Source: Escherichia coli
Lineage (GTDB): Bacteria; Pseudomonadota; Gammaproteobacteria; Enterobacterales; Enterobacteriaceae
Assembly (NCBI RefSeq): GCF_003334335.1
Contig: NZ_QOWQ01000053.1
Length of the DNA: 20,311 bases
Strand: one strand, 5' to 3'
Shown here: piece by piece, positions 1-19,712 of the stretch
How positions within the stretch are numbered: the stretch's first letter is position 1
Layout of the letters: each line of letters starts with the position of its first letter
Position numbers and translations under genes: made by a program
Notes under the pieces: generated by a model
The model's input: the letters and a program-made list of their open reading frames with translations, nothing else
The model's database searches: none
Told to the model about the DNA's origin: nothing

Positions 1-2352
1 AGTTATCGTGAGAGTAATTCATCGGCACGTTAAATCATATCAGGCGTAATACCACAACCCTTAAGTTAGCGCTTATGAGTAGTCTCCCCTCCCTGGCTTT
101 CGAAAAAGAAAAAATCGCCGATTCCGGTGCTGGATTTAGCGCCATTAGGCATTGAGCCAATCTGTTATCTGACAGAAGAAATCAGTAATCAACTTTTGGC
201 GAAATATATCTGGTATTCAAAACACATCACGGTTAGCCATGAAGAAAGTACTACCAACCTGTTGGCAAGGATGGGTTTTCAACGACGGATCGCTGGTACA
301 TGTATTAAAGCTCCCGAAGCGGTAGTTGAGGCATGGCTAAATGAAGATTATTCAACCTTACTAAGTGAATTTAAGGTGTTTCATTCACCTACCGGGCATT
401 ATTGGCAGTTGGGGATTTTGACAACATTGCCGCTGGAGAAAGCAGTAAAAGCATGGAATGCCCTTACCCTATCTCCACATACCGATACCGAATACGCCAT
501 GTTACATTTTGGACTCAAAGGGTTACCTGGGTTAGTAAACTCACTTGCACGCTATCCACAAGAAGCCTTGCCCATCACGAATTACTTCGCAGCGAGTGAG
601 CTGGCTCCTGCCGTCGCCCGTGCCTTCAACAAACTGAAAACGCTACGCGAAAACGCCCGTAGCTGGCTGTTGAAATACCCGGAACATGCCCTTACCGGCC
701 TGCTGCCTGCGGCGCTCGGCAAAGCCGGTGAAGCACAGGATAACGCCCGCGCTGCCTTGCGTATGCTTACCGAAAACGGTCATCAGCCATTACTGCAAGA
801 AATCGCCCGACGTTATAACCAGCCGGAAGTAACCGATGCGGTGAACGCTCTGCTTGCGCTCGATCCCTTAGATAATCACCCGACAAAAATCCCCACTCTT
901 CCGGCCTTTTATCAGCCATCGCTCTGGACGCGCCCGGTATTAAAAGCAAATGCCCAATCACTGCCAGATAGCGCCCTCCTCCACCTCGGTGAAATGCTCC
1001 GCTTCCCTCAGGAAGAGGCTCTGTATCCGGGATTATTGCAGGTGAAAGACGTCTGTTCCGCCGACTCACTGGCGGGATTTGCCTGGGATCTGTTTACCGC
1101 CTGGCAGACCGCTGGCGCGCCGTCGAAAGAGAGTTGGGCGTTCACTGCGTTAGGCGTTCTCGGTAACGATGACACCGCCCGCAAACTGACGCCATTAATA
1201 CGCGCCTGGCCTGGTGAATCCCAGCATAAACGCGCCACCGTTGGGTTGGATATTCTCGCTGCTATCGGTAGTGATATCGCCCTTATGCAGCTTAACGGCA
1301 TCGCCCAGAAACTGAAATTCAAAGCATTACAGGAGCGGGCAAAAGAAAAAATTGCCGACATTGCCGAGAGCCGCGAACTCACGGTGGCGGAGCTTGAAGA
1401 TCGGTTAGCACCGGATCTCGGTCTGGATGATAACGGTTCGCTGCTGCTGGATTTTGGCCCACGGCAGTTCACCGTCAGCTTTGATGAAACCTTAAAACCG
1501 TTTGTGCGTGATGTTTCCGGCAGCCGCCTGAAAGACCTGCCCAAACCGAACAAAAGCGATGATGAAACGCGGGCGAACGATGCGGTTAACCGCTACAAAT
1601 TGCTGAAAAAAGATGCGCGTACCATCGCCGCCCAGCAGGTAGCAAGGCTGGAATCCGCCATGTGCCTGCGCCGCCGCTGGTCGCTGGAAAACTTCCAGCT
1701 CTTCCTGGTTGAGCATCCGCTGGTTCGTCACTTAACCCGCCGTCTGATTTGGGGCGTTTATAGCGCCGAAAACCAGCTACTGGCTTGCTTTCGCGTAGCA
1801 GAAGATAACAGCTACAGCACCGCTGACGATGATCTTTTCACCCTGCCGGAAGGCGATATCTCTATCGGCACTCCTCACGTTCTGGAAATATCACCAACGG
1901 ATGCTGCCGCCTTTGGTCAGCTTTTTGCCGACTACGAACTGCTACCACCGTTCCGCCAGCTCGACCGTAACAGCTACGCCCTGACAGAAGCCGAGCGCAA
2001 TGCCAGTGAACTGACCCGCTGGGCAGGCAGAAAATGCCCGAGTGGTCGGGTCATGGGGCTGGCGAATAAAGGCTGGATAAAGGGCGAACCACAGGATGGA
2101 GGCTGGATCGGATGGATGATCAAACCTTTGGGTCGCTGGTCGTTAATCATGGAAATCGACGAAGGTTTTGCGGTGGGTATGTCACCAGCCGAACTTAGCG
2201 CTGAGCAGCTCTTAAGCAAGCTGTGGTTATGGGAAGGCAAAGCGGAAAGCTATGGCTGGGGGAGTAATTCAACACAGGAAGCGCAGTTCTCCGTACTCGA
2301 TGCCATCACCGCCAGCGAGCTAATTAACGATATTGAAGCCCTGTTTGAATAA
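1..2352 (+). pseudogene. molR: Disrupted DUF4132-type giant protein gene, tandem paralogue of yehI (molR/yehH locus). The residual ORF is 127..2352 (GTG, 741 aa) and the gene begins upstream of the window.
   Basis: The 741-aa ORF aligns end to end with YehI residues ~447-1207 (FAWDLFTAWQ.AGAP, DFGPRQFTV.FDE, RRWSL..F..F..HP, QLFADYE..PPFRQL). An identical 14-mer tttgcctgggatct occurs at 1078-1091 and 4774-4787. Homology continues 5' of the GTG: 79-126 reads VVSPPWLSKKKKSPIP against YehI LVSPPWRSKKKMTAPR, and nt 11-28 match yehI 3578-3595 at 15/18. The same frame has stops at 31-33 (TAA), 67-69 (TAG) and 76-78 (TGA). There is no SD before GTG127. From memory, K-12 annotates this locus as the molR pseudogene. 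Confidence 0.75.
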
Positions 2353-2361
2353 GGAAAGAGC

Positions 2362-5300
2362 ATGGACAAGGAATTACCGTGGCTGGCGGATAACGCCCAA
2401 CTGGAACTGAAATATAAAAAAGGCAAAACACCACTCAGTCATCGCAAATGGCCGGGCGAACCGGTGCCTGTTATCACTGAAAGCATCATTCAGACACTGG
2501 GTGATAAATTGCTACAAAAAGCTGAGAAGAAAAAAAACATTGTCTGGCGTTATGAAAATTTTTCACTGGAGTGGCAGTCCGCCATCACGCAGGCCATCAA
2601 CTTGATCGGCGAACACAAACCCTCAATCCCGGCCCGGACAATGGCGGCGCTAGTCTGTATCGCGCAAAATGACAGCCAACAGTTGCTCGACGAAATCGTC
2701 CAACAAGAGGGACTGGAATATGCGACTGAGGTGGTGATTGCACGCCAGTTTATTACACGATGTTATGAGAGTGATCCTCTGCTAGTGACATTGCAGTATC
2801 AGGACGAGGATTATGGCTATGGTTATCGCTCAGAAACCTATAACGAATTCGATCTCCGACTGCGTAAGCATCTCTCTCTGGCAGAGGAAAGCAGCTGGCA
2901 GCGTTGCGCCGACAAACTCATTGCCGCACTGCCAGGAATACCCAAAATTCGCCGTCCTTTTATTGCACTACTCCTCCCGGAAAAACCTGAAATAGCCAAT
3001 GAACTCGCCAGTCTTGAAAGCTCCCGGTCAAGTCTCCATTCAAAGGAGTGGTTAAAGGTCATTGCTACTGATAATACGGCGGTAAAAAAACTCGAACGAT
3101 ACTGGGGCCTGGACGTATTTAGCGATCGCGAAGCCAGCTACATGTCACAAGAAAACCGCTTCGGCTACGCGGCCTGCGCCTCCCTTTTGCGCGAACAAGG
3201 ACTGGCAGCCGTTCCGCGCCTGGCAATGTATGCCCATAAAGAAGATTGCGGCAGTCTGCTGGTACAAATTAACCATCCGCAAGTCATCCGCACCTTGCTA
3301 CTGGTGGCTGATAAAAACAAACCCAGCCTGCAACGTGTGGCTAAATACAGTAAAAACTTCCCCCACGCGACGCTCGCCGCACTGGCAGAACTGCTGGCGT
3401 TAAAAGAACCACCAGCCCGCCCAGGTTATCCAATCATCGAAGACAAAAAGCTGCCTGCACAGCAAAAAGCACGCGATGAATACTGGCGTACGCTGTTACA
3501 AACGCTGATGGCATCGCAGCCACAACTGGCAGCAGAAGTGATGCCGTGGTTAAGTACTCAAGCCAGGGCAGTGCTGAATAGTTATTTATCGGCACCGCCA
3601 AAACCGGTTATTGATAGCACCGATAACAGCAGTCTGCCTGAAATGCTCGTTTCACCACCGTGGCGTAGTAAGAAAAAAATGACAGCTCCACGTCTTGATT
3701 TGGCACCGCTCGAATTAACTCCGCAAATTTACTGGCAACCAGGCGAACAAGAGAGGCTTGCCGCCACTGAATCTGCCCGTTATTTCAGCACGGAATCTCT
3801 TGCGGAACGCATGGAACAAAAAAGTGGACGAGTTGTATTACAGGAACTGGGTTTTGGGGATGATGTATGGCTGTTTCTGAATTATATACTCCCCGGAAAA
3901 CTGGATGCTGCACGCAATTCACTCATTGTTCAGTGGCATTACTACCAGGGGCGGGTTGAAGAGATCCTGAATGGCTGGAACTCCCCGCAAGCACAATTAG
4001 CAGAACAGGCGCTCCGCAGCGGTCACATAGAAGCGTTAATTAACATATGGGAAAATGACAACTTCTCACGTTATCGTCCGGAAAAGAGTGTCTGGAACCT
4101 GTATTTATTGGCACAGTTGCCGCGTGAGATGGCTTTGACCTTCTGGCTGCGTATCATTGAGAAAAAGCATCTGTTCGCGGGTGAGGACTATTTTCTCAGT
4201 ATCCTCGGATTGGATGCGCTACCAGGTCTGCTGTTGGCTTTTTCACATCGTCCAAAAGAAACATTTCCGTTAATTTTAAATTTTGGCGCAACAGAACTGG
4301 CGCTGCCTGTTGCCCGCGTCTGGCGACGTTTCGCGGCGCAGCGTGATCTGGCTCGCCAGTGGATTTTACAATGGCCGGAACATACGGCTAGTGCACTTAT
4401 CCCTCTTGTCTTTACCAAACCCAGCGATAATAGCGAAGCCGCATTACTTGCCCTGCGTTTACTGTACGAACAGGGACATGGCGAATTGCTACAAACCGTG
4501 GCAAACCGCTGGCAGCGTACAGATGTATGGTCTGCCCTGGAGCAGTTGCTTAAACAGGGTCCAATGGACATTTACCCGGCACGCATTCCAAAAGCCCCTG
4601 ATTTCTGGCATCCGGCAATGTGGTCCAGGCCTCGACTTATCACTAATAATCAGCCTGTTACCGGTGACGCTCTGGAAATTATCGGCGAAATGCTGCGCTT
4701 TACCCAGGGGGGACGTTTTTATAGCGGGCTGGAACAACTGAAAACGTTCTGCCAGCCACAAACGCTGGCAGCTTTTGCCTGGGATCTCTTCACTGCGTGG
4801 CAACAAGCTGGTGCCCCCGCAAAAGACAACTGGGCATTTCTGGCGTTAAGTCTCTTTGGTGACGAAAGCACGGCACGGGATCTGACGACACAGATCCTCG
4901 CCTGGCCACAAGAAGGCAAATCTGCCCGTGCTGTCAGCGGCCTGAACATCCTTACCCTGATGAATAATGATATGGCGCTGATACAGCTGCATCATATATC
5001 GCAACGGGCTAAATCCCGCCCCTTACGTGATAACGCGGCGGAATTTCTTCAGGTGGTCGCAGAAAATCGCGGGCTAAGCCAGGAAGAGCTAGCGGACAGA
5101 TTAGTCCCAACCCTGGGCCTTGATGATCCGCAGGCGTTGAGTTTTGATTTTGGTCCCCGGCAGTTTACCGTTCGCTTCGATGAAAACCTCAACCCGGTTA
5201 TCTTTGATCAGCAAAACGTTCGCCAGAAAAGCGTTCCCCGGTTGCGCGCCGATGACGATCAACTGAAAGCGCCCGAGGCACTGGCCCGACTAAAAGGGCT

Positions 5301-5985
5301 AAAAAAAGATGCTACTCAGGTGAGCAAAAACCTGCTCCCGCGTCTTGAAGCTGCCCTACGTACCACCCGACGCTGGTCGCTGGCAGATTTTCATTCTCTG
5401 TTTGTTAATCATCCCTTTACCCGTCTGGTTACCCAGCGATTAATATGGGTGGTTTATCCGGCAAATGAACCGCGTTGTTTACTCAAAGCCTTTCGTGTGG
5501 CCGCAGAGGGGGAGTTCTGCAATGCGCAAGATGAGCCAATTGACCTGCCTGCGGACGCTCTGATTGGCATTGCCCACCCGTTAGAAATGACAGTAGAAAT
5601 GCGCAGTGAATTTGCACAGCTTTTTGCCGATTACGAAATTATGCCGCCTTTTCGCCAGTTGTCGCGCCGCACGGTGCTGCTCACACCTGACGAGTCAACC
5701 AGTAACAGCCTGACTCGCTGGGAAGGTAAATCCGCTACCGTTGGGCAGCTTATGGGAATGCGATACAAAGGCTGGGAGTCAGGCTATGAGGACGCATTTG
5801 TGGGCGAGTACCGGCTGGTCCTTAAGTTTTCACCCGGTTTTAACCACTACAATGTTGATAGCAAAGCGTTAATGAGCTTCCGTTCTCTTCGAGTGTACCG
5901 TGACAATAAATCCGTCACTTTTGCCGAACTTGATGTGTTTGATTTGAGTGAGGTGTTAAGCGCACCTGACGTCATTTTCCATTAA
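2362..5985 (+). CDS. yehI: YehI, 1207-aa DUF4132-family protein of unknown function
   Basis: A long uninterrupted ORF. ATG 2362 lies 9 nt after the upstream stop and is preceded by AAGGAAAGAG. Length and sequence match my memory of E. coli YehI (~1210 aa). The C-terminal two thirds are paralogous to the ORF at 127..2352. Confidence 0.93.
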   Translation: MDKELPWLADNAQLELKYKKGKTPLSHRKWPGEPVPVITESIIQTLGDKLLQKAEKKKNIVWRYENFSLEWQSAITQAINLIGEHKPSIPARTMAALVCIAQNDSQQLLDEIVQQEGLEYATEVVIARQFITRCYESDPLLVTLQYQDEDYGYGYRSETYNEFDLRLRKHLSLAEESSWQRCADKLIAALPGIPKIRRPFIALLLPEKPEIANELASLESSRSSLHSKEWLKVIATDNTAVKKLERYWGLDVFSDREASYMSQENRFGYAACASLLREQGLAAVPRLAMYAHKEDCGSLLVQINHPQVIRTLLLVADKNKPSLQRVAKYSKNFPHATLAALAELLALKEPPARPGYPIIEDKKLPAQQKARDEYWRTLLQTLMASQPQLAAEVMPWLSTQARAVLNSYLSAPPKPVIDSTDNSSLPEMLVSPPWRSKKKMTAPRLDLAPLELTPQIYWQPGEQERLAATESARYFSTESLAERMEQKSGRVVLQELGFGDDVWLFLNYILPGKLDAARNSLIVQWHYYQGRVEEILNGWNSPQAQLAEQALRSGHIEALINIWENDNFSRYRPEKSVWNLYLLAQLPREMALTFWLRIIEKKHLFAGEDYFLSILGLDALPGLLLAFSHRPKETFPLILNFGATELALPVARVWRRFAAQRDLARQWILQWPEHTASALIPLVFTKPSDNSEAALLALRLLYEQGHGELLQTVANRWQRTDVWSALEQLLKQGPMDIYPARIPKAPDFWHPAMWSRPRLITNNQPVTGDALEIIGEMLRFTQGGRFYSGLEQLKTFCQPQTLAAFAWDLFTAWQQAGAPAKDNWAFLALSLFGDESTARDLTTQILAWPQEGKSARAVSGLNILTLMNNDMALIQLHHISQRAKSRPLRDNAAEFLQVVAENRGLSQEELADRLVPTLGLDDPQALSFDFGPRQFTVRFDENLNPVIFDQQNVRQKSVPRLRADDDQLKAPEALARLKGLKKDATQVSKNLLPRLEAALRTTRRWSLADFHSLFVNHPFTRLVTQRLIWVVYPANEPRCLLKAFRVAAEGEFCNAQDEPIDLPADALIGIAHPLEMTVEMRSEFAQLFADYEIMPPFRQLSRRTVLLTPDESTSNSLTRWEGKSATVGQLMGMRYKGWESGYEDAFVGEYRLVLKFSPGFNHYNVDSKALMSFRSLRVYRDNKSVTFAELDVFDLSEVLSAPDVIFH

Positions 5986-6046: not shown

Positions 6047-6364
6047 ATGATCGTGCAAAAAGAGCTGGTTGCTATTTACGATTATGAGGTCCCTGTACCT
6101 GAAAATCCGTTTTCCTTCAGACTTGAGATCAATAAATGCTCTGAATTATTTACAGGTTCCGTCTATCGACTGGAGCGATTCCGGCTACGTCCAACATTTC
6201 ATCAACGTGATCGAGAAGATGCTGACCCGCTAATAAATGATGCGTTGATTTATATAAGAGATGAGTGTATTGATGAGCGGAAATTACGAGGTGAATCACC
6301 TGAAACTGTAATAGCAATTTTTAATCGTGAACTACAGAATATATTCAACCAAGAAATAGAATAA
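6047..6364 (+). CDS. yehK: YehK, 105-aa protein of unknown function
   Basis: ATG 6047 is preceded by GGGGAAAG. The 105-aa length matches E. coli YehK as I remember it. The gene is visibly AT-richer than its neighbours. Confidence 0.85.
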   Translation: MIVQKELVAIYDYEVPVPENPFSFRLEINKCSELFTGSVYRLERFRLRPTFHQRDREDADPLINDALIYIRDECIDERKLRGESPETVIAIFNRELQNIFNQEIE

Positions 6365-6441
6365 TATACTCTAAATAATTCAAATTGGTCCGATCCGGCG
6401 CAACGTCCCAATGGCCTGGATTATAAATCTCATTATCTTAA

Positions 6442-6470
6442 TTGCAACGGGGTCCAGCCGTGGTTATAAT
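6442..6470 (+). promoter_or_regulatory. Near-consensus sigma70 promoter (TTGCAA-17 nt-TATAAT)
   Basis: -35 ttgcaa at 6442-6447, an exact 17-nt spacer at 6448-6464, and a perfect -10 tataat at 6465-6470. It lies in the yehK-yehL intergenic region. Predicted TSS is about 6477. Confidence 0.45.
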
Positions 6471-6476
6471 TCGTTC

Positions 6477-6559
6477 GTTGGAACACGATGTTGCACAGGC
6501 TGCGGTGTTGGGCCTGAAAATAGTAAATAAAAGAACCTGCCTCACCAGCAGGTTTTTTT
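6477..6559 (+). ncRNA. Candidate ~80-nt small RNA, or terminated leader of the yehL operon
   Basis: Bounded by the promoter at 6442-6470 and the intrinsic terminator at 6534-6559. It contains a stem-loop caggc/gcctg (6496-6516), then an A/U-rich stretch aaaatagtaaataaaag, then the terminator with a U7 tail. It holds no ORF beyond 9 codons. Confidence 0.3.
6534..6559 (+). terminator. Rho-independent terminator
   Basis: aacctgc (6534-6540), loop ctcacca, gcaggtt (6548-6554), running into T7 (6553-6559). An A-rich tract upstream (aaataaaag) makes it potentially bidirectional. Confidence 0.75.
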
Positions 6560-6670
6560 ATTTACTGTGATCTGCTTTCCAGATATTTTCCGCTCAAACA
6601 ACTAATGCGCCAAACATTTATTGCGCGTAAAATATCGTTTATTTCATTAATACATTTCAGGGATGAATAT

Positions 6671-7759
6671 ATGTCACCGCAGAATAATCATCTGCAGCGT
6701 CCGCCTGCTGCTGTGTTATACGCCGATGAACTGGCAAAATTAAAACAAAATGATAACGCACCTTGCCCGCCCGGTTGGCAGTTAAGTTTGCCTGCGGCCC
6801 GTGCTTTTATCCTTGGCGATAGCGCGCAAAATATTAGCCGTAAAGTGGTGATTAGTCCCTCCGCTGTCGAACGCATGTTAGTCACTCTTGCCACCGGGCG
6901 CGGTTTGATGTTGGTGGGGGAACCTGGCACCGCAAAATCTCTCCTGTCTGAATTACTGGCAACCGCTATTAGCGGCGATGCCGGGTTAACCATCCAGGGC
7001 GGCGCATCTACTACCGAAGATCAAATCAAGTACGGCTGGAACTACGCCCTGCTTATCAATCATGGTCCATCAACGGAAGCGCTGGTCCCTGCCCCGCTTT
7101 ACCAGGGAATGCGCGACGGCAAAATCGTCCGTTTTGAAGAGATAACGCGTACACCGCTGGAAGTGCAAGACTGTCTGTTAGGTATGCTTTCTGACAGGGT
7201 GATGACGGTGCCGGAACTCACTGGTGAAGCCAGTCAGCTCTATGCGCGAGAAGGCTTTAATATTATTGCCACTGCCAATACCCGCGATCGCGGCGTCAAT
7301 GAAATGAGTGCTGCGCTAAAGCGTCGCTTCGATTTTGAAACTGTCTTTCCGATTATGGATTTCGCCCAGGAGCTGGAGCTTGTCGCCAGTGCTTCGGCGC
7401 GTTTGCTGGCCCATAGCGGTATTCCGCATAAAGTGCCTGACGCGGTACTGGAGTTACTGGTCCGCACCTTCCGCGATCTGCGTGCCAACGGCGAAAAGAA
7501 AACGTCAATGGATACACTAACAGCGATTATGTCCACCGCTGAAGCCGTGAACGTGGCCCACGCCGTAGGCGTCCGCGCCTGGTTTTTAGCGAATCGCGCA
7601 GGTGAGCCAGCCGACCTGGTGGACTGCATTGCCGGAACCATCGTCAAAGATAACGAAGAAGATCGCGCTCGTCTGCGCCGTTACTTCGAACAACGAGTCG
7701 CCACACATAAAGAAGCTCACTGGCAGGCTTATTATCAAGCCCGCCACCGCCTGCCGTGA
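6671..7759 (+). CDS. yehL: YehL, MoxR-class AAA+ ATPase (362 aa)
   Basis: ATG 6671 with AGGGA upstream gives the 362 aa I remember for K-12 YehL, whereas the track ORF starts at 6605. Walker A GEPGTAKS is at 6917-6940 and a Walker-B-like VRFEEI lies downstream. Size and layout fit a single-AAA MoxR protein. Confidence 0.93.
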   Translation: MSPQNNHLQRPPAAVLYADELAKLKQNDNAPCPPGWQLSLPAARAFILGDSAQNISRKVVISPSAVERMLVTLATGRGLMLVGEPGTAKSLLSELLATAISGDAGLTIQGGASTTEDQIKYGWNYALLINHGPSTEALVPAPLYQGMRDGKIVRFEEITRTPLEVQDCLLGMLSDRVMTVPELTGEASQLYAREGFNIIATANTRDRGVNEMSAALKRRFDFETVFPIMDFAQELELVASASARLLAHSGIPHKVPDAVLELLVRTFRDLRANGEKKTSMDTLTAIMSTAEAVNVAHAVGVRAWFLANRAGEPADLVDCIAGTIVKDNEEDRARLRRYFEQRVATHKEAHWQAYYQARHRLP

Positions 7760-7769
7760 GGAAAGATGC

Positions 7770-10049
7770 ATGAGCGAGCCGTTAATTGTCGGCATCCGGC
7801 ATCATAGTCCGGCCTGCGCCCGGCTGGTGAAATCGTTAATCGAAAGCCAGCGGCCACGATACGTATTGATTGAAGGCCCGGCTGATTTTAATGACCGGGT
7901 AGACGAACTGTTTTTAGCCCACCAGCTTCCGGTAGCTATTTACAGTTATTGCCAGTATCAGGACGGTGCAGCCCCCGGGCGTGGTGCCTGGACGCCATTT
8001 GCTGAATTTTCGCCGGAGTGGCAGGCGCTACAAGCCGCACGTCGTATTCAGGCACAAACTTACTTCATCGATTTGCCTTGCTGGGCGCAGAGTGAAGAAG
8101 TGGACGATTCGCCTGATACGCAAGAGGAAAGCCAGGCCTTGCTGCTGCGTGCCACCTGCATGGATAACAGCGACACCCTGTGGGATCACTTGTTCGAAGA
8201 TGAAAGCCAGCAAACTGCATTACCCTCTGCACTGGCGCACTATTTTGCCCAACTGCGGGGCGACTCCCCCGGAGATGCTCTCAATCGTCTGCGCGAAGCC
8301 TTTATGGCCCGCTGGATTGGATGGGCGATGCAGCAAAATAATGGCGACGTGTTAGTTGTCTGCGGTGGCTGGCACGCTCCGGTACTGGCAAAAATGTGGC
8401 GCGAATGCCCGCAGGAAATTAACACGCCAGAATTGCCGTCGCTGGCAGATGCCGTTACAGGTTGTTATCTCACCCCCTACAGTGAAAAGCGCCTTGATGT
8501 GCTGGCAGGATACCTTTCCGGAATGCCTGCCCCGGTCTGGCAAAACTGGTGCTGGCAGTGGGGCTTACAGCAGGCGGGAGAACAACTGCTAAAAACGGTT
8601 CTCACCCGTTTGCGCCAGCACAAGTTGCCTGCTTCGACCGCGGATATGGCTGCCGCTCATCTGCATGCGATGGCACTGGCACAGTTGCGCGGTCATACAC
8701 TACCGTTACGCACTGACTGGCTGGATGCCATAGCAGGATCGCTGATTAAAGAAGCCCTGAATGCGCCGTTGCCGTGGAGCTATCGCGGCGTTATTCATCC
8801 CGACACCGATCCGATTCTGCTAACGTTGATAGACACATTAGCGGGTGACGGATTCGGTAAACTTGCCCCTTCTACGCCACAACCTCCTCTGCCAAAAGAT
8901 GTCACCTGCGAACTGGAACGTACCGCAATCTCCCTTCCGGCGGAGCTTACCTTAAATCGCTTTAACCCCAATGGACTAGCGCAAAGTCAGGTGTTACATC
9001 GGCTGGCAATACTGGAGATCCCAGGGATTGTGCGCCAGCAGGGAAGCACACTGACACTTGCAGGCAACGGTGAAGAACACTGGAAATTAACCCGCCCGCT
9101 TAGCCAGCATGCGGCATTGATTGAGGCCGCCTGCTTTGGTGCCACACTCCAGGAAGCCGCACGCCATAAATTAGAAGCCGATATGCTGGACGCGGGTGGA
9201 ATCGGCAGTATCACCACATGTCTTAGCCAGGCGGCGTTAGCGGGTCTGGCGTCCTTCAGTCAACAATTACTGGAGCAACTCACATTATTAATCGCCCAGG
9301 AAAATCAATTTGCCGAAATGGGCCAGGCGCTGGAAGTGCTATATGCCTTATGGCGGCTGGATGAAATTAGCGGTATGCAAGGCGCGCAGATATTACAAAC
9401 GACGTTATGCGCGGCTATCGATCGCACGCTGTGGCTGTGTGAATCTAACGGCAGACCGGATGAAAAGGAGTTTCACGCTCACCTGCATAGCTGGCAAGCG
9501 CTTTGCCATATTCTGCGCGATCTACATAGCGGCGTTAATTTATCCGGCGTTTCGCTTTCTGCGGCGGTAGCCTTACTGGAGCGACGCAGTCAGGCGATTC
9601 ATGCCCCGGCGCTGGATCGCGGCGCGGTTCTTGGCGCACTAATGCGTCTGGAACATCCCAACGCCAGTGCCGAAGCGGCGCTGACGATGCTGGCGCAGTT
9701 ATCCCCGGCACAATCCGGCGAGGCGCTGCACGGTTTGCTGGCATTAGCCCGTCATCAACTGGCCTGTCAGCCGGCATTTATCGCCGGTTTCAGCAGTCAT
9801 TTAAATCAACTAAGTGATGCCGATTTTACCAATGCCCTGCCCGATTTACGCGCGGCAATGGCCTGGCTACCGCCACGAGAACGCGGGACGCTGGCGCATC
9901 AGGTGCTTGAGCATTATCAACTGGCGCAACTTCCCGTTTCGGCACTGCAAATGCCGTTGCATTGTCCACCGCAAGCCATTGCACATCATCAACAACTCGA
10001 ACAGCAGGCACTGGCATCGCTGCAACACTGGGGAGTTTTCCATGTCTGA
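7770..10049 (+). CDS. yehM: YehM, 759-aa protein of unknown function (I believe DUF5682 family)
   Basis: ATG 7770 lies 10 nt after the yehL stop and is preceded by GAGGAAAG. It yields 759 aa, matching K-12 YehM from memory. The upstream extension to 7602 lies inside yehL. I cannot name a catalytic motif. The C-terminal half is Ala/Leu-rich and looks helical. Confidence 0.92.
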   Translation: MSEPLIVGIRHHSPACARLVKSLIESQRPRYVLIEGPADFNDRVDELFLAHQLPVAIYSYCQYQDGAAPGRGAWTPFAEFSPEWQALQAARRIQAQTYFIDLPCWAQSEEVDDSPDTQEESQALLLRATCMDNSDTLWDHLFEDESQQTALPSALAHYFAQLRGDSPGDALNRLREAFMARWIGWAMQQNNGDVLVVCGGWHAPVLAKMWRECPQEINTPELPSLADAVTGCYLTPYSEKRLDVLAGYLSGMPAPVWQNWCWQWGLQQAGEQLLKTVLTRLRQHKLPASTADMAAAHLHAMALAQLRGHTLPLRTDWLDAIAGSLIKEALNAPLPWSYRGVIHPDTDPILLTLIDTLAGDGFGKLAPSTPQPPLPKDVTCELERTAISLPAELTLNRFNPNGLAQSQVLHRLAILEIPGIVRQQGSTLTLAGNGEEHWKLTRPLSQHAALIEAACFGATLQEAARHKLEADMLDAGGIGSITTCLSQAALAGLASFSQQLLEQLTLLIAQENQFAEMGQALEVLYALWRLDEISGMQGAQILQTTLCAAIDRTLWLCESNGRPDEKEFHAHLHSWQALCHILRDLHSGVNLSGVSLSAAVALLERRSQAIHAPALDRGAVLGALMRLEHPNASAEAALTMLAQLSPAQSGEALHGLLALARHQLACQPAFIAGFSSHLNQLSDADFTNALPDLRAAMAWLPPRERGTLAHQVLEHYQLAQLPVSALQMPLHCPPQAIAHHQQLEQQALASLQHWGVFHV

Positions 10050-11178
10050 ACTGAACGATCTTCTGACCACCCGTGAGCTACAACGCTGGCGATTAATTCT
10101 TGGCGAAGCGGCAGAAACGACGCTTTGTGGGCTGGATGACAACGCCCGGCAGATAGACCACGCGCTGGAGTGGCTGTATGGGCGCGATCCTGAACGGCTC
10201 CAGCGTGGTGAACGCTCCGGTGGATTAGGTGGCTCAAATCTCACCACCCCTGAGTGGATCAACAGTATTCACACGCTGTTTCCGCAACAGGTGATTGAGC
10301 GGCTGGAAAGCGATGCCGTACTGCGCTACGGCATTGAAGATGTGGTGACAAATCTCGACGTGCTGGAACGTATGCAGCCTTCCGAAAGCCTGCTACGCGC
10401 CGTTTTGCACACCAAACATCTGATGAATCCCGAAGTACTGGCTGCCGCCCGCCAGATAGTGCGCCAGGTTGTTGAAGAAATTATGGCGCGACTGGCAAAG
10501 GAAGTTCGCCAGGCTTTTTCTGGTGTCCGCGATCGCCGTCGCCGTTCATTTATTCCACTGGCGCGAAACTTTGATTTCAAAAGTACTCTGCGCGCCAACC
10601 TGCAACACTGGCACCCGCAACACGGCAAGTTGTATATCGAATCCCCCCGCTTTAACAGCCGCATTAAACGCCAAAGCGAACAATGGCAACTGGTCTTACT
10701 GGTTGATCAAAGCGGATCGATGGTCAATTCGGTGATCCACTCTGCGGTGATGGCGGCCTGTTTGTGGCAGTTACCCGGCATTCGTACCCATCTGGTGGCG
10801 TTTGACACAAGCGTCGTTGATCTCACGGCAGACGTTGCCGATCCGGTAGAGTTATTAATGAAAGTACAGTTGGGCGGCGGGACCAATATCGCCAGTGCCG
10901 TGGAGTATGGTCGGCAACTTATTGAACAACCAGCGAAAAGCGTCATTATCCTCGTGAGCGATTTTTACGAAGGGGGTTCATCATCATTACTGACGCATCA
11001 GGTGAAAAAGTGTGTCCAGAGCGGCATCAAAGTGCTGGGACTGGCAGCGCTCGATAGCACCGCAACACCTTGCTATGACCGCGATACGGCCCAGGCGCTG
11101 GTTAATGTCGGCGCACAAATAGCCGCCATGACGCCGGGCGAGCTGGCATCATGGCTTGCGGAGAATCTTCAGTCATGA
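10042..11178 (+). CDS. yehP: YehP, von Willebrand factor A (VWA) domain protein (378 aa)
   Basis: ATG 10042 overlaps the yehM stop by 8 nt (ATGTCTGA). 378 aa matches K-12 YehP from memory. The MIDAS signature DxSxS = DQSGS is at 10705-10719, followed by GGGTN and SDFYEG. Confidence 0.93.
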   Translation: MSELNDLLTTRELQRWRLILGEAAETTLCGLDDNARQIDHALEWLYGRDPERLQRGERSGGLGGSNLTTPEWINSIHTLFPQQVIERLESDAVLRYGIEDVVTNLDVLERMQPSESLLRAVLHTKHLMNPEVLAAARQIVRQVVEEIMARLAKEVRQAFSGVRDRRRRSFIPLARNFDFKSTLRANLQHWHPQHGKLYIESPRFNSRIKRQSEQWQLVLLVDQSGSMVNSVIHSAVMAACLWQLPGIRTHLVAFDTSVVDLTADVADPVELLMKVQLGGGTNIASAVEYGRQLIEQPAKSVIILVSDFYEGGSSSLLTHQVKKCVQSGIKVLGLAALDSTATPCYDRDTAQALVNVGAQIAAMTPGELASWLAENLQS

Positions 11179-13178
11179 ATTCACTACGTCCGGAATTATT
11201 AGAACTGACACCACAGGCCCTGACGGCGTTAAGCAATGCCGGTTTTGTTAAGCGCAGTCTTAAGGAACTGGAAAATGGCAACGTCCCGGAGATCAGCCAT
11301 GAGAACGACGCTTTAATCGCCACCTTCAGTGACGGTGTCCGTACCCAGCTGGCGAACGGCCAGGCACTGAAAGAGGCTCAGTGCAGTTGCGGGGCCAACG
11401 GTATGTGCCGTCATCGCGTGATGCTGGTGTTAAGTTATCAACGACTTTGTGCCACCACTCAGTCTACGGAAAAAGAAGAAGAGTGGGATCCGGCAATCTG
11501 GCTGGAAGAACTGGCTACCCTTCCCGATGCTACCCGCAAACGCGCACAGGCACTGGTCGCTAAAGGCATCACCATTGAGTTGTTCTGTACGCCGGGCGAA
11601 ATTCCCTCTGCCCGCTTACCGATGAGCGATGTGCGTTTTTATTCCCGTAGCAGCATTCGTTTCGCCCGTTGTGATTGTATTGAAGGCACACTTTGCGAAC
11701 ATGTCGTACTGGCAGTACAGGCCTTTGTCCAGGCAAAAGCGCAGCAAGCGGAATTGACTCATTTAATCTGGCAGATGCGCAGCGAACACGTCACATCATC
11801 TGACGATCTGTTTGCCAGCGAAGAAGGCAAAACGTGTCGTCAATATGTTCAGCAACTAAGCCAGGCATTATGGCTGGGCGGCATCAGCCAGCCGCTTATT
11901 CACTACGAGGCCGCTTTCAGCCGCGCGCAGCAAGCAGCGGAACGCTGCAACTGGCGATGGGTGAGTGAATCGCTACGGCAACTGCGCGCCAGCGTTGATG
12001 CCTTCCACGCCCGCGCCAGCCACTATCATGCCGGAGAATGCTTACGTCAGCTTGCGGCATTAAACAGTCGATTAAATTGCGCACAAGAGATGGCGCGGCG
12101 CGACAGTGTTGGTGAAGTTCCTCCTGTGCCGTGGCGCACGGTCGTTGGCTCTGGCATTGCCGGAGAAGCAAAGCTTGATCATCTGCGGCTGGTGTCTTTA
12201 GGTATGCGTTGCTGGCAGGATATTGAGCATTATGGTTTACGCATCTGGTTTACCGATCCCGACACCGGCAGTATTTTGCACCTTTCGCGCAGTTGGCCGC
12301 GAAGTGAACAGGAAAACTCACCGGCAGCTACGCGTCGGCTGTTTAGTTTTCAGGCTGGCGCACTGGCGGGTGGGCAAATTGTTTCACAAGCAGCAAAACG
12401 CAGTGCCGATGGCGAGCTGCTGTTAGCTACCCGCAACCGCTTAAGCAGCGTTGTGCCGCTGTCGCCTGATGCCTGGCAAATGTTGAGCGCGCCGTTACGC
12501 CAGTCGGGCATTGTGGCTTTGCGGGAATATTTACGCCAGCGTCCCCCCTCCTGCATACGGCCTCTTAATCAGGTCGATAACTTATTTATTCTGCCGGTCG
12601 CTGAGTGTATTTCGCTCGGTTGGGATAGCAGCCGCCAGACGCTGGATGCGCAGGTAATCAGCGGCGAAGGTGAAGATAATCTGCTGACGTTATCACTGCC
12701 AGCCTCAGCCAGCGCGCCTTATGCCATTGAACGCATGGCGGCGCTTTTGCAACAAACAGACGACCCCGTGTGTCTGGTTTCTGGCTTTGTCAGTTTTGTT
12801 GATGGGCAATTGACACTGGAACCACAGGTAATGATGACAAAGACTCGTGCCTGGGCGCTGGACGCAGAAACTGCGCCTGTGGTGGCATCACTACCTTCTG
12901 TCAGCGTTCTGCCTGTGCCGTCTACTGCTCATCAGTTGCTGATGCGCTGCCAGGCATTACTTATTCAACTGCTCCATAACGGCTGGCGCTATCAGGAACA
13001 GAGTGCTATTGGTCAGGCAGAGTTGCTGGCGAATGACCTCACCGCGGTGGGTTTTTATCGGCTGGCACATGTATTGGGACAATTTCGTAATACAGAAAGC
13101 GAGGCACGGGTAGAAGCAATGAATAACTGCGTTTTGCTGTGCGAACAATTATTCCCCATGCTTCAGCAACAAGGATGA
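11175..13178 (+). CDS. yehQ: YehQ, SWIM zinc-finger protein (667 aa from the coupled start)
   Basis: ATG 11175 overlaps the yehP stop as ATGA (11175-11178). There are two CxCx5CxH motifs: CSCGANGMCRH (about 11382-11414) and CDCIEGTLCEH (11670-11702). An alternative in-frame ATG at 11151 lies inside yehP. I am unsure of the reference length of YehQ. Confidence 0.85.
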   Translation: MNSLRPELLELTPQALTALSNAGFVKRSLKELENGNVPEISHENDALIATFSDGVRTQLANGQALKEAQCSCGANGMCRHRVMLVLSYQRLCATTQSTEKEEEWDPAIWLEELATLPDATRKRAQALVAKGITIELFCTPGEIPSARLPMSDVRFYSRSSIRFARCDCIEGTLCEHVVLAVQAFVQAKAQQAELTHLIWQMRSEHVTSSDDLFASEEGKTCRQYVQQLSQALWLGGISQPLIHYEAAFSRAQQAAERCNWRWVSESLRQLRASVDAFHARASHYHAGECLRQLAALNSRLNCAQEMARRDSVGEVPPVPWRTVVGSGIAGEAKLDHLRLVSLGMRCWQDIEHYGLRIWFTDPDTGSILHLSRSWPRSEQENSPAATRRLFSFQAGALAGGQIVSQAAKRSADGELLLATRNRLSSVVPLSPDAWQMLSAPLRQSGIVALREYLRQRPPSCIRPLNQVDNLFILPVAECISLGWDSSRQTLDAQVISGEGEDNLLTLSLPASASAPYAIERMAALLQQTDDPVCLVSGFVSFVDGQLTLEPQVMMTKTRAWALDAETAPVVASLPSVSVLPVPSTAHQLLMRCQALLIQLLHNGWRYQEQSAIGQAELLANDLTAVGFYRLAHVLGQFRNTESEARVEAMNNCVLLCEQLFPMLQQQG

Positions 13179-13256
13179 AATAGTGCTTTTTACTAAGAGT
13201 TCTACTCCAGTTCCGGACTGCTCACACCACGGTATTAGGCATATCCTATATAGCCC

Positions 13257-13273
13257 CTGGTGAGAGTCACCAG
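13257..13273 (+). other. Perfect 7-bp hairpin/palindrome in the yehQ-yehR spacer
   Basis: ctggtga-gag-tcaccag, followed by ttccttgatt. It could be a weak operon-end terminator or a protein-binding palindrome 30 nt upstream of the yehR start. Confidence 0.3.
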
Positions 13274-13302
13274 TTCCTTGATTAAATAAAATGGAGTTTT
13301 AC

Positions 13303-13764
13303 ATGAAGGCTTTCAATAAGCTGTTTTCCCTTGTTGTTGCATCTGTTCTGGTTTTCTCTCTTGCTGGCTGCGGTGACAAAGAAGAATCGAAGAAATTCAG
13401 CGCCAATCTGAACGGCACTGAAATTGCCATTACCTATGTCTACAAAGGTGACAAGGTGCTTAAGCAATCTTCAGAAACCAAAATTCAATTTGCCTCTATT
13501 GGTGCAACCACCAAAGAAGACGCTGCCAAGACACTTGAGCCGTTAAGCGCCAAATACAAAAACATCGCGGGTGTTGAAGAAAAATTAACCTATACCGATA
13601 CCTACGCGCAGGAAAACGTGACTATCGATATGGAAAAAGTGGATTTTAAAGCCCTGCAGGGTATTTCAGGAATCAACGTTTCTGCTGAAGATGCCAAAAA
13701 AGGTATCACTATGGCGCAAATGGAACTGGTGATGAAAGCCGCTGGTTTTAAAGAAGTGAAATAA
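13303..13764 (+). CDS. yehR: YehR, predicted lipoprotein (153 aa)
   Basis: ATG 13303 with GGAG 6 nt upstream. The signal peptide ends in the lipobox LAGC (Cys23). 153 aa matches K-12 YehR from memory. Confidence 0.92.
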   Translation: MKAFNKLFSLVVASVLVFSLAGCGDKEESKKFSANLNGTEIAITYVYKGDKVLKQSSETKIQFASIGATTKEDAAKTLEPLSAKYKNIAGVEEKLTYTDTYAQENVTIDMEKVDFKALQGISGINVSAEDAKKGITMAQMELVMKAAGFKEVK

Positions 13765-14321: not shown

Positions 14322-15041
14322 TTACAGGCCAATCGCCTCTTTTAAGCTTTTCAGATAACGGCGGCTGACCGGCACGGTTAAGCCATTACGCAAAATCAAC
14401 TCGGCCTGGCCGTTATCTTCCAGACGAATCTCCTGTAAATGCGCGAGGTTAACCAGATACTGACGATGGCAGCGCAGTAGTGGTGTACGACTTTCCAGGG
14501 TACGTAATGTCAATTCGGTAAAGCCCTCTTTCCCTTCGTGGCTGGTAACGTAGACACCGCTCATCCGACTGCTGACAAATGCCACATCTTTCATTTGCAG
14601 CAAATAAATCCGACTATGCCCAGTACAAGGGATAAATTTCAGCGCCTGTTGATTTTCTGGTAACAGCGAAACATCCTGCTTGCTGCGTTCCTGCCGCAAA
14701 CGCGCCAGCGTTTTCTCCAGTCGCGCTTCATCAATTGGCTTCAGCAGATAATCAAAGGCGTGTTCTTCAAAGGCTTTAATGGCGTATTCGTCAAACGCGG
14801 TGAGAAAAACAATATACGGACGATGTTCCGGGTCGAGCATCCCCACCATTTCCAGACCACTGATGCGCGGCATCTGGATATCGAGAAACAGCACATCCGG
14901 GCGCAGTTTATGCACCGCGCCGATCCCTTCCACGGCGTTTGAACACTCACCAACGATTTCAATATCGCTCTGCTCCTGCAAAAATACGCGCAGGTTCTCC
15001 CGTGCTAACGGTTCATCATCGACAATTAAGACTTTAATCAT
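14322..15041 (-). CDS. btsR: BtsR (YehT), LytTR-family response regulator (239 aa)
   Basis: The receiver domain starts [14 protein letters not shown], with the phospho-acceptor context LFLDIQMP, and the C-terminal domain is LytTR-type. The start ATG overlaps the btsS stop as ATGA (15038-15041). Confidence 0.95.
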
Positions 15042-19477: not shown

Positions 19478-19712
19478 CTTACTATAACGTCGGTGATATC
19501 ACGTCCGCGAAGGGGTATCCGCATTACGACTGGCCTGCCACTTATGCTGTCTCTTTATTCATCAACAATTTGTATACGGTTACATCTTTAATTGTGAAGT
19601 TAGTCACAAAAAGAAGAAAGTCAAATAATCAAATTGTGCTTAACTGTTTACATCAGCACAATCTGATAACCATTGAAGGACGCACTAAATTATTTTCAGC
19701 AATCCCTCAGCC

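Follow-up and report, generated by a model that had tools for sequence, protein, structure and literature searches.

Overlapping junctions conserved across five phyla suggest that yehLMPQ of Escherichia coli form a coupled operon within a five-gene MoxR-VWA module

The genes yehL, yehM, yehP and yehQ of Escherichia coli follow one another on the same strand of a 20,311-nucleotide (nt) stretch of DNA (contig NZ_QOWQ01000053.1 of assembly GCF_003334335.1; hereafter the window). These four genes probably constitute one operon, coupled by translational termination and reinitiation, that forms the core of a conserved five-gene MoxR-VWA module. From the anatomy of the junctions, their conservation and the domain content of the products, we infer re-initiation, complex formation and a division of labour among the Yeh proteins. 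The window corresponds to the E. coli yeh region; positions 6400-13400 match several E. coli chromosomes at 100% identity and were found in 5,416 of 5,426 complete E. coli genomes. The RefSeq annotation of one identical chromosome, made with the Prokaryotic Genome Annotation Pipeline (PGAP), served as the reference for gene coordinates (in this locus, L001, positions are those of the window plus 601). The four genes and the signals at their junctions are listed here with product lengths in amino acids (aa):

6671..7759 (+): yehL, 362 aa, a MoxR-type AAA+ ATPase (Pfam AAA_5, E 1.6e-34)
7758..7769 (+): yehL/yehM junction; GAGGAAAG begins within the yehL stop codon
7770..10049 (+): yehM, 759 aa, DUF5682 (Pfam)
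10030..10035 (+): Shine-Dalgarno-like GGGGAG of yehP, within yehM, with 6 nt between its end and the ATG
10042..11178 (+): yehP, 378 aa, a CoxE-like VWA protein (Pfam VWA_CoxE, E 3.6e-72)
11160..11163 (+): Shine-Dalgarno-like GGAG of yehQ, within yehP, with 11 nt between its end and the ATG
11175..13178 (+): yehQ, 667 aa, with a Pfam SWIM match at residues 56-88

A preliminary description of these genes had placed all three junctions exactly to the base, in agreement with the RefSeq/PGAP gene starts of the identical chromosome, and the same starts are conserved in relatives. The yehL gene ends with TGA at 7757-7759 and yehM begins with ATG at 7770, leaving a 10-nt spacer (7760-7769); GAGGAAAG occupies 7758-7765, and its GAGG lies 8 nt before the yehM ATG. 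The yehP ATG (10042) comes ahead of the yehM TGA (10047-10049), giving an 8-nt overlap that reads ATGTCTGA (10042-10049), and the yehQ ATG (11175) shares 4 nt, ATGA (11175-11178), with the yehP stop (TGA, 11176-11178). Another yehQ ATG (11151) is absent in further Escherichia clades, the ATG at -4 is retained everywhere, and the yehQ GGAG is embedded in conserved A-E-K/N codons of the YehP C-terminus.

For the comparison between genomes, diverse YehM homologues were aligned and 80 loci were taken from species-representative genomes of Enterobacterales, Burkholderiales, Xanthomonadales, Moraxellaceae, Desulfuromonadaceae, Myxococcota, Actinomycetota and Acidobacteriota; at least 586 candidate stretches encode a relative. 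The five genes were assigned at each locus by BLASTP of stop-to-stop open reading frames (ORFs), all candidate starts were listed for each junction, and the start closest to the upstream stop was taken as that of the downstream gene. The order yehL-yehM-yehP-yehQ was found in 69 of the 80 loci, distributed over Pseudomonadota, Myxococcota, Desulfuromonadaceae, Actinomycetota and Acidobacteriota. Most of the remaining 11 loci stop at a contig edge, and YehQ was not detectable in three full-length myxobacterial loci. A YehI-like DUF4132 gene was present at 67 of the 80 loci, mostly immediately upstream of yehL; in Burkholderia and some Myxococcota (L029, L068, L070, L071, L064) it lies downstream of yehQ instead. 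By these assignments, the order DUF4132 (YehI-like)-YehL-YehM-YehP-YehQ is kept across five phyla.

The genes flanking this unit vary (sigma factor, TonB receptor, FtsK, pseudouridine synthase, ion exchanger). Additional upstream genes are more DUF4132 paralogues, and one of the YehI-like ORFs has a WGR domain at its start. A conserved sixth gene was ruled out, as downstream neighbours are unrelated between genomes and the upstream extras are these paralogues. Because the YehI-like gene recurs at the loci and the downstream neighbours are unrelated, we take the conserved unit to be five genes including yehI. The preliminary description had proposed that the four products act together, which is supported by one tight co-directional unit of conserved order; we judge that YehL, YehM, YehP and YehQ very probably do so, but the proposal left out the conserved fifth member. 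Its general inference of one operon with linked products is reasonable. It had ranked the geometry of the junctions as the strongest argument available within the sequence, and on that point we differ, as gene content, order and -4 overlaps over five phyla are much stronger.

Junction distances in the surveyed loci were distributed as follows (nt from upstream stop to downstream start, with overlaps negative):

yehM/yehP, 77 loci: -4 in 54, -1 in 11, -8 in 4, other overlap in 1, 0 to +12 in 1, +13 to +30 in 1, beyond +30 in 5
yehP/yehQ, 68 loci: -4 in 54, -1 in 5, -8 in 0, other overlap in 0, 0 to +12 in 5, +13 to +30 in 2, beyond +30 in 2
yehL/yehM, 77 loci: -4 in 27, -1 in 4, -8 in 0, other overlap in 0, 0 to +12 in 32, +13 to +30 in 4, beyond +30 in 10
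yehI/yehL, 56 loci: -4 in 4, -1 in 0, -8 in 0, other overlap in 0, 0 to +12 in 12, +13 to +30 in 9, beyond +30 in 31

Counted by tight classes, yehM/yehP stands at -4, -1 or -8 in 69 of 77 loci, yehP/yehQ at -4 or -1 in 59 of 68, and yehL/yehM at -4, -1 or 0 to +12 in 63 of 77. The four -8 cases at yehM/yehP are three Escherichia loci (L001-L003, including the window's own) and one myxobacterial locus (L064). The yehL/yehM gap is +9 to +12 in every Enterobacterales locus, and this junction is at -4 or -1 in 31 of the 77 loci, in other lineages. Taken in operon order, the three junctions of Klebsiella are +10, -1 and either -1 or -4, those of Serratia are +12, -1 and -4, and Oxalobacteraceae, Xanthomonadales and many Actinomycetota have -4 throughout, as is typical of most remaining lineages; in Glycomyces, yehP starts in TGATG and ATGA overlaps. 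Because the junction classes differ by lineage, we read the +10 spacer as an enterobacterial and the -8 overlap as an Escherichia peculiarity, not as a designed gradient. Burkholderia shows gaps of 50-170 nt at both yehL/yehM and yehM/yehP, and yehM and yehP are separated by an insertion of ~1.5 kb in an Azoarcus metagenome-assembled genome (L081) and of ~0.76 kb in Xenophilus (L036).

These comparisons do not uphold the 'progressively tighter' coupling that had been described along the four genes: the series +10, -8, -4 is not monotonic, comprises three values and is not conserved outside Escherichia. We attach no special meaning to the fact that the three E. coli junctions differ in length. 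We find it very unlikely that the three junctions tune unequal stoichiometry as an Escherichia-specific design, with a +1 frameshift site in yehP further cutting the ribosome flux to yehQ. Reinitiation efficiency does vary with gene pair and distance (PMC10666635), and RavA and ViaA, the other E. coli MoxR-VWA pair, are unequal, at about 350 and 90 molecules per cell (PMC3893208). The frameshift-prone cassette, GTGGAGTATGGTCGGC, was reported from FSscan (PMC2790909) and is located in the window at 10900..10915 (+), yehP codons 287-291; it promoted a +1 shift in over-expressed reporter fusions, and the shifted peptide was detected by mass spectrometry (PMC2790909). A +1 shift at this site would stop translation 15 codons on, well before the yehP/yehQ overlap. 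However, over-expressed fusions are the source of the frameshift evidence, the gradient consists of three non-monotonic data points, and neither the junction series nor the cassette is conserved beyond Escherichia. As a conserved programmed event the +1 site was rejected, since the cassette is Escherichia-only and Klebsiella and remoter homologues carry other codons.

The background against which the E. coli junctions were judged is the survey by Huber et al. 2023 of all 2,987 co-directional E. coli gene pairs (PMC10666635). The commonest overlaps in that set rank -4, then -1, then -8; 707 of the 2,987 pairs lie at -8 to +6, about 27% of pairs fall within -8 to +10, and a small separate peak of 203 pairs lies at +9 to +12, with 194 of the 201 characterised ones on polycistronic transcripts (PMC10666635). 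The yehM/yehP and yehP/yehQ pairs fit the -8 to +6 class of coupled overlapping pairs, and yehL/yehM, at +10, falls outside it in the +9 to +12 class. Similar junctions occur elsewhere in the window, with overlaps of 4 nt at btsS/btsR (15038-15041) and 8 nt at yehY/yehX (19479-19486) and gaps of 4 nt at yehX/yehW and 9 nt at yehH/yehI (2353-2361). The yehL-M-P-Q junctions each exemplify a different one of three standard E. coli classes and are not beyond chance for an E. coli operon; such classes are already covered by genome-wide surveys, and the yeh pattern, a standard operon signature, is ordinary and matters little in itself. The value lies in the comparison, which places yehLMPQ and yehI in a deeply conserved, widely spread and understudied module whose conserved overlaps offer a testable handle on whether the products form one MoxR-VWA machine.

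Overlaps of this kind had been said normally to enforce fixed stoichiometry among the subunits of one complex. Known heteromeric-complex subunits account for 30.4% of E. coli pairs at -8 to +10 and 6.8% of those separated by over 20 nt (PMC10666635), and this 4.5-fold enrichment favours the association with complexes. The claim of enforced stoichiometry is nevertheless overstated, because ~70% of the tightly spaced pairs are not known complexes and btsS/btsR has a 4-nt overlap without an obligate complex.

The same ~70% (PMC10666635) also speaks for neutral compaction, in which overlaps are packing by-products that arise after start or stop loss, with ATGA and ATGNNTGA hard to undo, each gene having its own Shine-Dalgarno sequence and no stoichiometry being set. 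Among prokaryotes as a whole, overlaps are most often of -4, -1 and -8 (PMC10666635), GAGG or GGAG is found at every yeh junction, the exact overlap drifts from -8 in Escherichia to -1 in Klebsiella and Serratia and -4 elsewhere, and neutral origins of overlap lengths are argued in PMC3887535. On the other hand, the native overlapping E. coli pairs that have been tested were translationally coupled (PMC10666635), and yehM/yehP and yehP/yehQ remain overlapped over five phyla, whereas yehI/yehL in the same loci mostly shows a gap. Neutral origin and functional coupling can both hold, and we regard neutral compaction as unlikely, though it is the main rival to the coupled operon.

The experimental work on coupling gives further points of comparison. 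Overlapping E. coli pairs were coupled, and coupling was mostly gone at +38 nt and variably lowered at +2 and +14 (PMC10666635). The coupled pairs of Huber et al. 2019/2023 (hyfH-hyfI, ydbH-ynbE, menD-menH) are, like the yeh pairs, co-directional with stop/start overlaps, and share with them an internal Shine-Dalgarno-like motif in the upstream gene and a lack of room for a promoter. Those tested pairs have -1 overlaps, whereas the yeh pairs have -8 and -4, and their coupling is predicted. Huber et al. 2023 (PMC10666635) set apart a '+10/11' class, in which they deem independent initiation likely, and yehL/yehM with its +10 spacing is of this class.

It is extremely improbable that the four genes are expressed separately from independent internal promoters, with their tight spacing irrelevant to expression. 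Such promoters had been named as grounds for abandoning the proposal, and a consensus scan, which is insensitive to weak and non-sigma-70 promoters, gave no sigma-70-like site on the + strand from 6700 to 13178. The overlapping coding sequence leaves no room between genes, and E. coli pairs spaced like yehL/yehM are, as noted above, nearly all polycistronic where characterised (PMC10666635). Over 8 kb the scan returned two promoter sites, which both lie near 6440, where shuffles would have given 7.2 in all, and no consensus promoter at 6569-6670 ahead of yehL; terminator-like hits numbered 15, against 10.1 +/- 3.2 in shuffles, which is not above expectation. A search for published transcript maps of the unit yielded none.

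In the coupled operon that we favour, a single mRNA would start upstream of yehL, past the terminator that follows yehK, and would be silenced by H-NS in Escherichia. In favour of a single unit are the strong terminator just ahead of yehL, the scan without promoter-like sites within the genes, and the joint rise of yehL and yehM in hns/stpA mutants (PMC3686432). At the -8 and -4 overlaps, a ribosome ending yehM or yehP would already be on the next start and would most likely re-initiate there, with the internal GGAG motifs helping. Translation of yehM would begin at GAGG-ATG, either by short-range re-initiation across the 10 nt or by fresh initiation, the latter perhaps aided by the terminating ribosome melting a hairpin that spans the stop codon and the Shine-Dalgarno sequence. 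A hairpin of this kind is predicted in the mRNA at 7716..7760 (+), its 3' arm covering the yehL stop and the beginning of the yehM Shine-Dalgarno sequence (folding z -2.3). The inner stem is conserved in Enterobacterales with G-U changes only and no compensatory ones, and the sequence is also coding. Because it shows no covariation and lies within conserved coding sequence, the hairpin is not established as a structure, and we retain masking of the yehM Shine-Dalgarno sequence only as a possibility. The outcome would be co-ordinated synthesis of the four proteins, in amounts probably falling along the operon, and the products would probably work as a single MoxR-VWA machine or assemble into one.

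Several points weigh against this reading. The literature searched held no direct expression, ribosome profiling (Ribo-seq) or interaction data for YehL, YehM, YehP or YehQ, and the genes are absent from the supplements of one E. coli Ribo-seq paper. Each downstream gene is preceded by its own Shine-Dalgarno-like motif, which is compatible with independent initiation, and the 11-nt spacing of the yehQ motif is long. The ATGA overlap is mutationally 'locked', with any change killing a start or a stop, so its conservation need not mean selection for coupling. Gaps of 50-400 nt occur in a few lineages (Burkholderia, some Comamonadaceae), and coupling is therefore not obligatory. The nearest-start rule is biased toward tight junctions, and finding [A/G/T]TGA before a TGA stop is by itself no rarity. 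The overlap survey keeps its weight because conserved N-terminal residues of the downstream proteins start no more than a few codons from the upstream stop, leaving few or no alternative starts, and because the same rule gives mostly gaps at yehI/yehL. With -4 in just 4 of 56 cases, that junction is an internal control showing that the rule does not force overlaps.

The domain content of YehL and YehP points to the MoxR-VWA pairing. In 77 YehL sequences the Walker A motif GEPGTAKS and the motifs RFEEI, ATAN and RRF are invariant; the Walker B position (window 7120-7140, residues ~153-158) reads R-F-E-E-I, with Glu-Glu for the usual Asp-Glu, in 77 of 77. Among the MoxR ATPases, YehL is the type member of the subfamily that bears its name (PMC3893208), and its closest solved relative by sequence is the midasin AAA ring. 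The MIDAS motif of YehP is intact, with D222-x-S224-x-S226, T281 and D306 conserved in 76 sequences, and the yehL-yehP (MoxR ATPase/VWA) linkage occurs in every locus that extends far enough.

A MoxR ATPase and a VWA protein are likewise paired in RavA-ViaA, CoxD-CoxE, NorQ-NorD and CbbQ-CbbO, as are YehL (AAA_5) and YehP (VWA_CoxE) in one operon; eukaryotic midasin carries both modules on one chain, whereas YehL and YehP are two chains. The yeh genes differ from the other pairs as follows: two large proteins, YehM and YehQ, are interspersed with the pair, to which a DUF4132 protein is also linked; no client enzyme genes (cox, nor, cbb, nuo) are adjacent and neighbours vary between genomes; and Walker B has E-E in place of D-E. 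With the carbon monoxide dehydrogenase maturation proteins CoxD/CoxE/CoxF it has only the VWA_CoxE domain in common, and the yeh flanks lack cox structural genes. By analogy with the other MoxR-VWA pairs, a YehL ring and the YehP MIDAS domain may act together as an ATP-driven remodelling engine.

The other members are less familiar. In YehM, a TraB/ChaN/EreA-like domain at the N-terminus precedes a helical, HEAT-like solenoid some 500 residues long. The N-terminal domain shares the fold of the TraB/ChaN/EreA/TIKI-like superfamily, although no Pfam match to those families was obtained even at E 5 and DUF5682 was the sole Pfam hit; fusion to the ~500-residue solenoid sets YehM apart from the superfamily. 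Invariant GxRH and GGxH motifs are present and are candidate counterparts of the superfamily motifs. YehQ has two invariant SWIM-type CxC...CxH zinc-finger motifs, at residues 70-80 and 166-176 (C166, C168, C174, H176), and the segment from residue 91 gave a weak SWIM hit. Its AlphaFold2 model is weak (predicted local distance difference test score, pLDDT, 65.8; predicted template modelling score, pTM, 0.38), and a Foldseek search of this model against the Protein Data Bank returned nothing at E < 0.01, with faint hits containing OB-folds from which no conclusion was drawn. YehQ is also unusually variable within E. coli, at about 605 to 709 aa and 87-97% identity, with YehL at about 99% in the same comparisons.

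Sequence searches found no solved structure for YehM, YehP, YehQ or YehI, NCBIfam yielded sub-threshold matches alone (GvpN, MadB and cobaltochelatase), next to nothing has been published on DUF5682 and DUF4132, and three of the five module proteins are without function, solved structure or literature. As predicted from these domains, the module is DUF4132 (YehI/MolR-like, often with WGR)-MoxR AAA+ (YehL)-TraB/ChaN-like plus HEAT (YehM)-VWA/MIDAS (YehP)-double-SWIM (YehQ). YehM could serve as a scaffold or an enzyme, and the fast-evolving YehQ and YehI could be the parts that bind a target or signal.

Identity to the E. coli proteins across phyla is 63-76% for YehL, 55-70% for YehP, 37-48% for YehM, 30-38% for YehQ and 29-36% for YehI. 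The YehL and YehP values are very high for the distances between E. coli and Actinomycetota, Myxococcota and Acidobacteriota (loci L013-L080 against the window). This high cross-phylum identity, together with a patchy distribution, suggests that the whole module may have spread horizontally. On the same identities, YehL and YehP are the conserved, putative engine and the remaining members its variable partners. A further and speculative reading, which we hold to be unlikely, is that the five genes encode an undescribed ATP-driven sensing or conflict system, directed for example against phages or foreign nucleic acid, in which the YehL/YehP engine would be coupled to YehQ and YehI as fast-evolving recognition subunits and the -4 overlaps would have the parts made together so that they assemble co-translationally. 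No defence model in PADLOC-DB 2.0 matched YehI, YehK, YehL, YehM, YehP or YehQ at E <= 0.01.

Gene fusions were considered as 'Rosetta stone' evidence and rejected, as the YehM-YehP, YehL-YehM and YehP-YehQ fusions are all 94-99% identical to E. coli. The fused ORFs (P0001, P0003, P0009, P0012, P0128, P0189, P0190, P0195, P0215) have at most a few cluster members each and are most likely due to assembly errors or alleles with a 1-nt indel at the overlaps rather than to fusion during evolution; P0189 and P0190 (892 aa, 7 cluster members together) may be real alleles.

The remaining features of the region lie upstream of yehL and directly after yehQ:

127..2352 (+): 3' part of a yehH/molR-like gene, DUF4132 in the annotation of the identical genome; the gene passes the window's left edge and ends 9 nt ahead of yehI
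2362..5985 (+): yehI, 1207 aa, Pfam DUF4132 (E 3e-47), the conserved fifth module member
6047..6364 (+): yehK, small, Escherichia-only, inserted between yehI and yehL
6520..6568 (+): strong hairpin with A- and T-tracts, an intrinsic terminator between yehK and yehL
6569..6670 (+): yehL leader/promoter region, AT-rich, about 100 nt, the intergenic region for which H-NS binding is reported (PMC3686432)
directly after yehQ: yehR, the YehR lipoprotein (RefSeq annotation of the identical genome)

The terminator at 6520-6568 has a folding energy of -26 kcal/mol (z -8.55) and was also flagged as terminator-like in the scan. Homologues of yehK were found only in Escherichia loci, without a family match in Pfam or NCBIfam, and the gene has a guanine-cytosine content of 40% against about 54% for its neighbours. 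The DUF4132 gene directly adjoins yehL in almost every other lineage, and for this reason an ancestral five-gene operon appears to have been split in Escherichia by yehK and the 6520-6568 terminator. Published data bear on the regulation of the region: yehL and yehM are both up-regulated in hns/stpA mutants, H-NS binds an 'intergenic' region near yehL/yehM by chromatin immunoprecipitation (PMC3686432), and BglJ-RcsB activates the yehH (molR) promoter upstream (PMC3950696). In a large sublineage of sequence type 131 (ST131), the blaCTX-M-15 transposon TnMB1860 is inserted in the metG/DUF4132/yeh region (PMC9334617), and loss of the DUF4132 region (window 1-5985) is tolerated, as this insertion indicates. 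In Shigella flexneri (L048) the operon is decayed.

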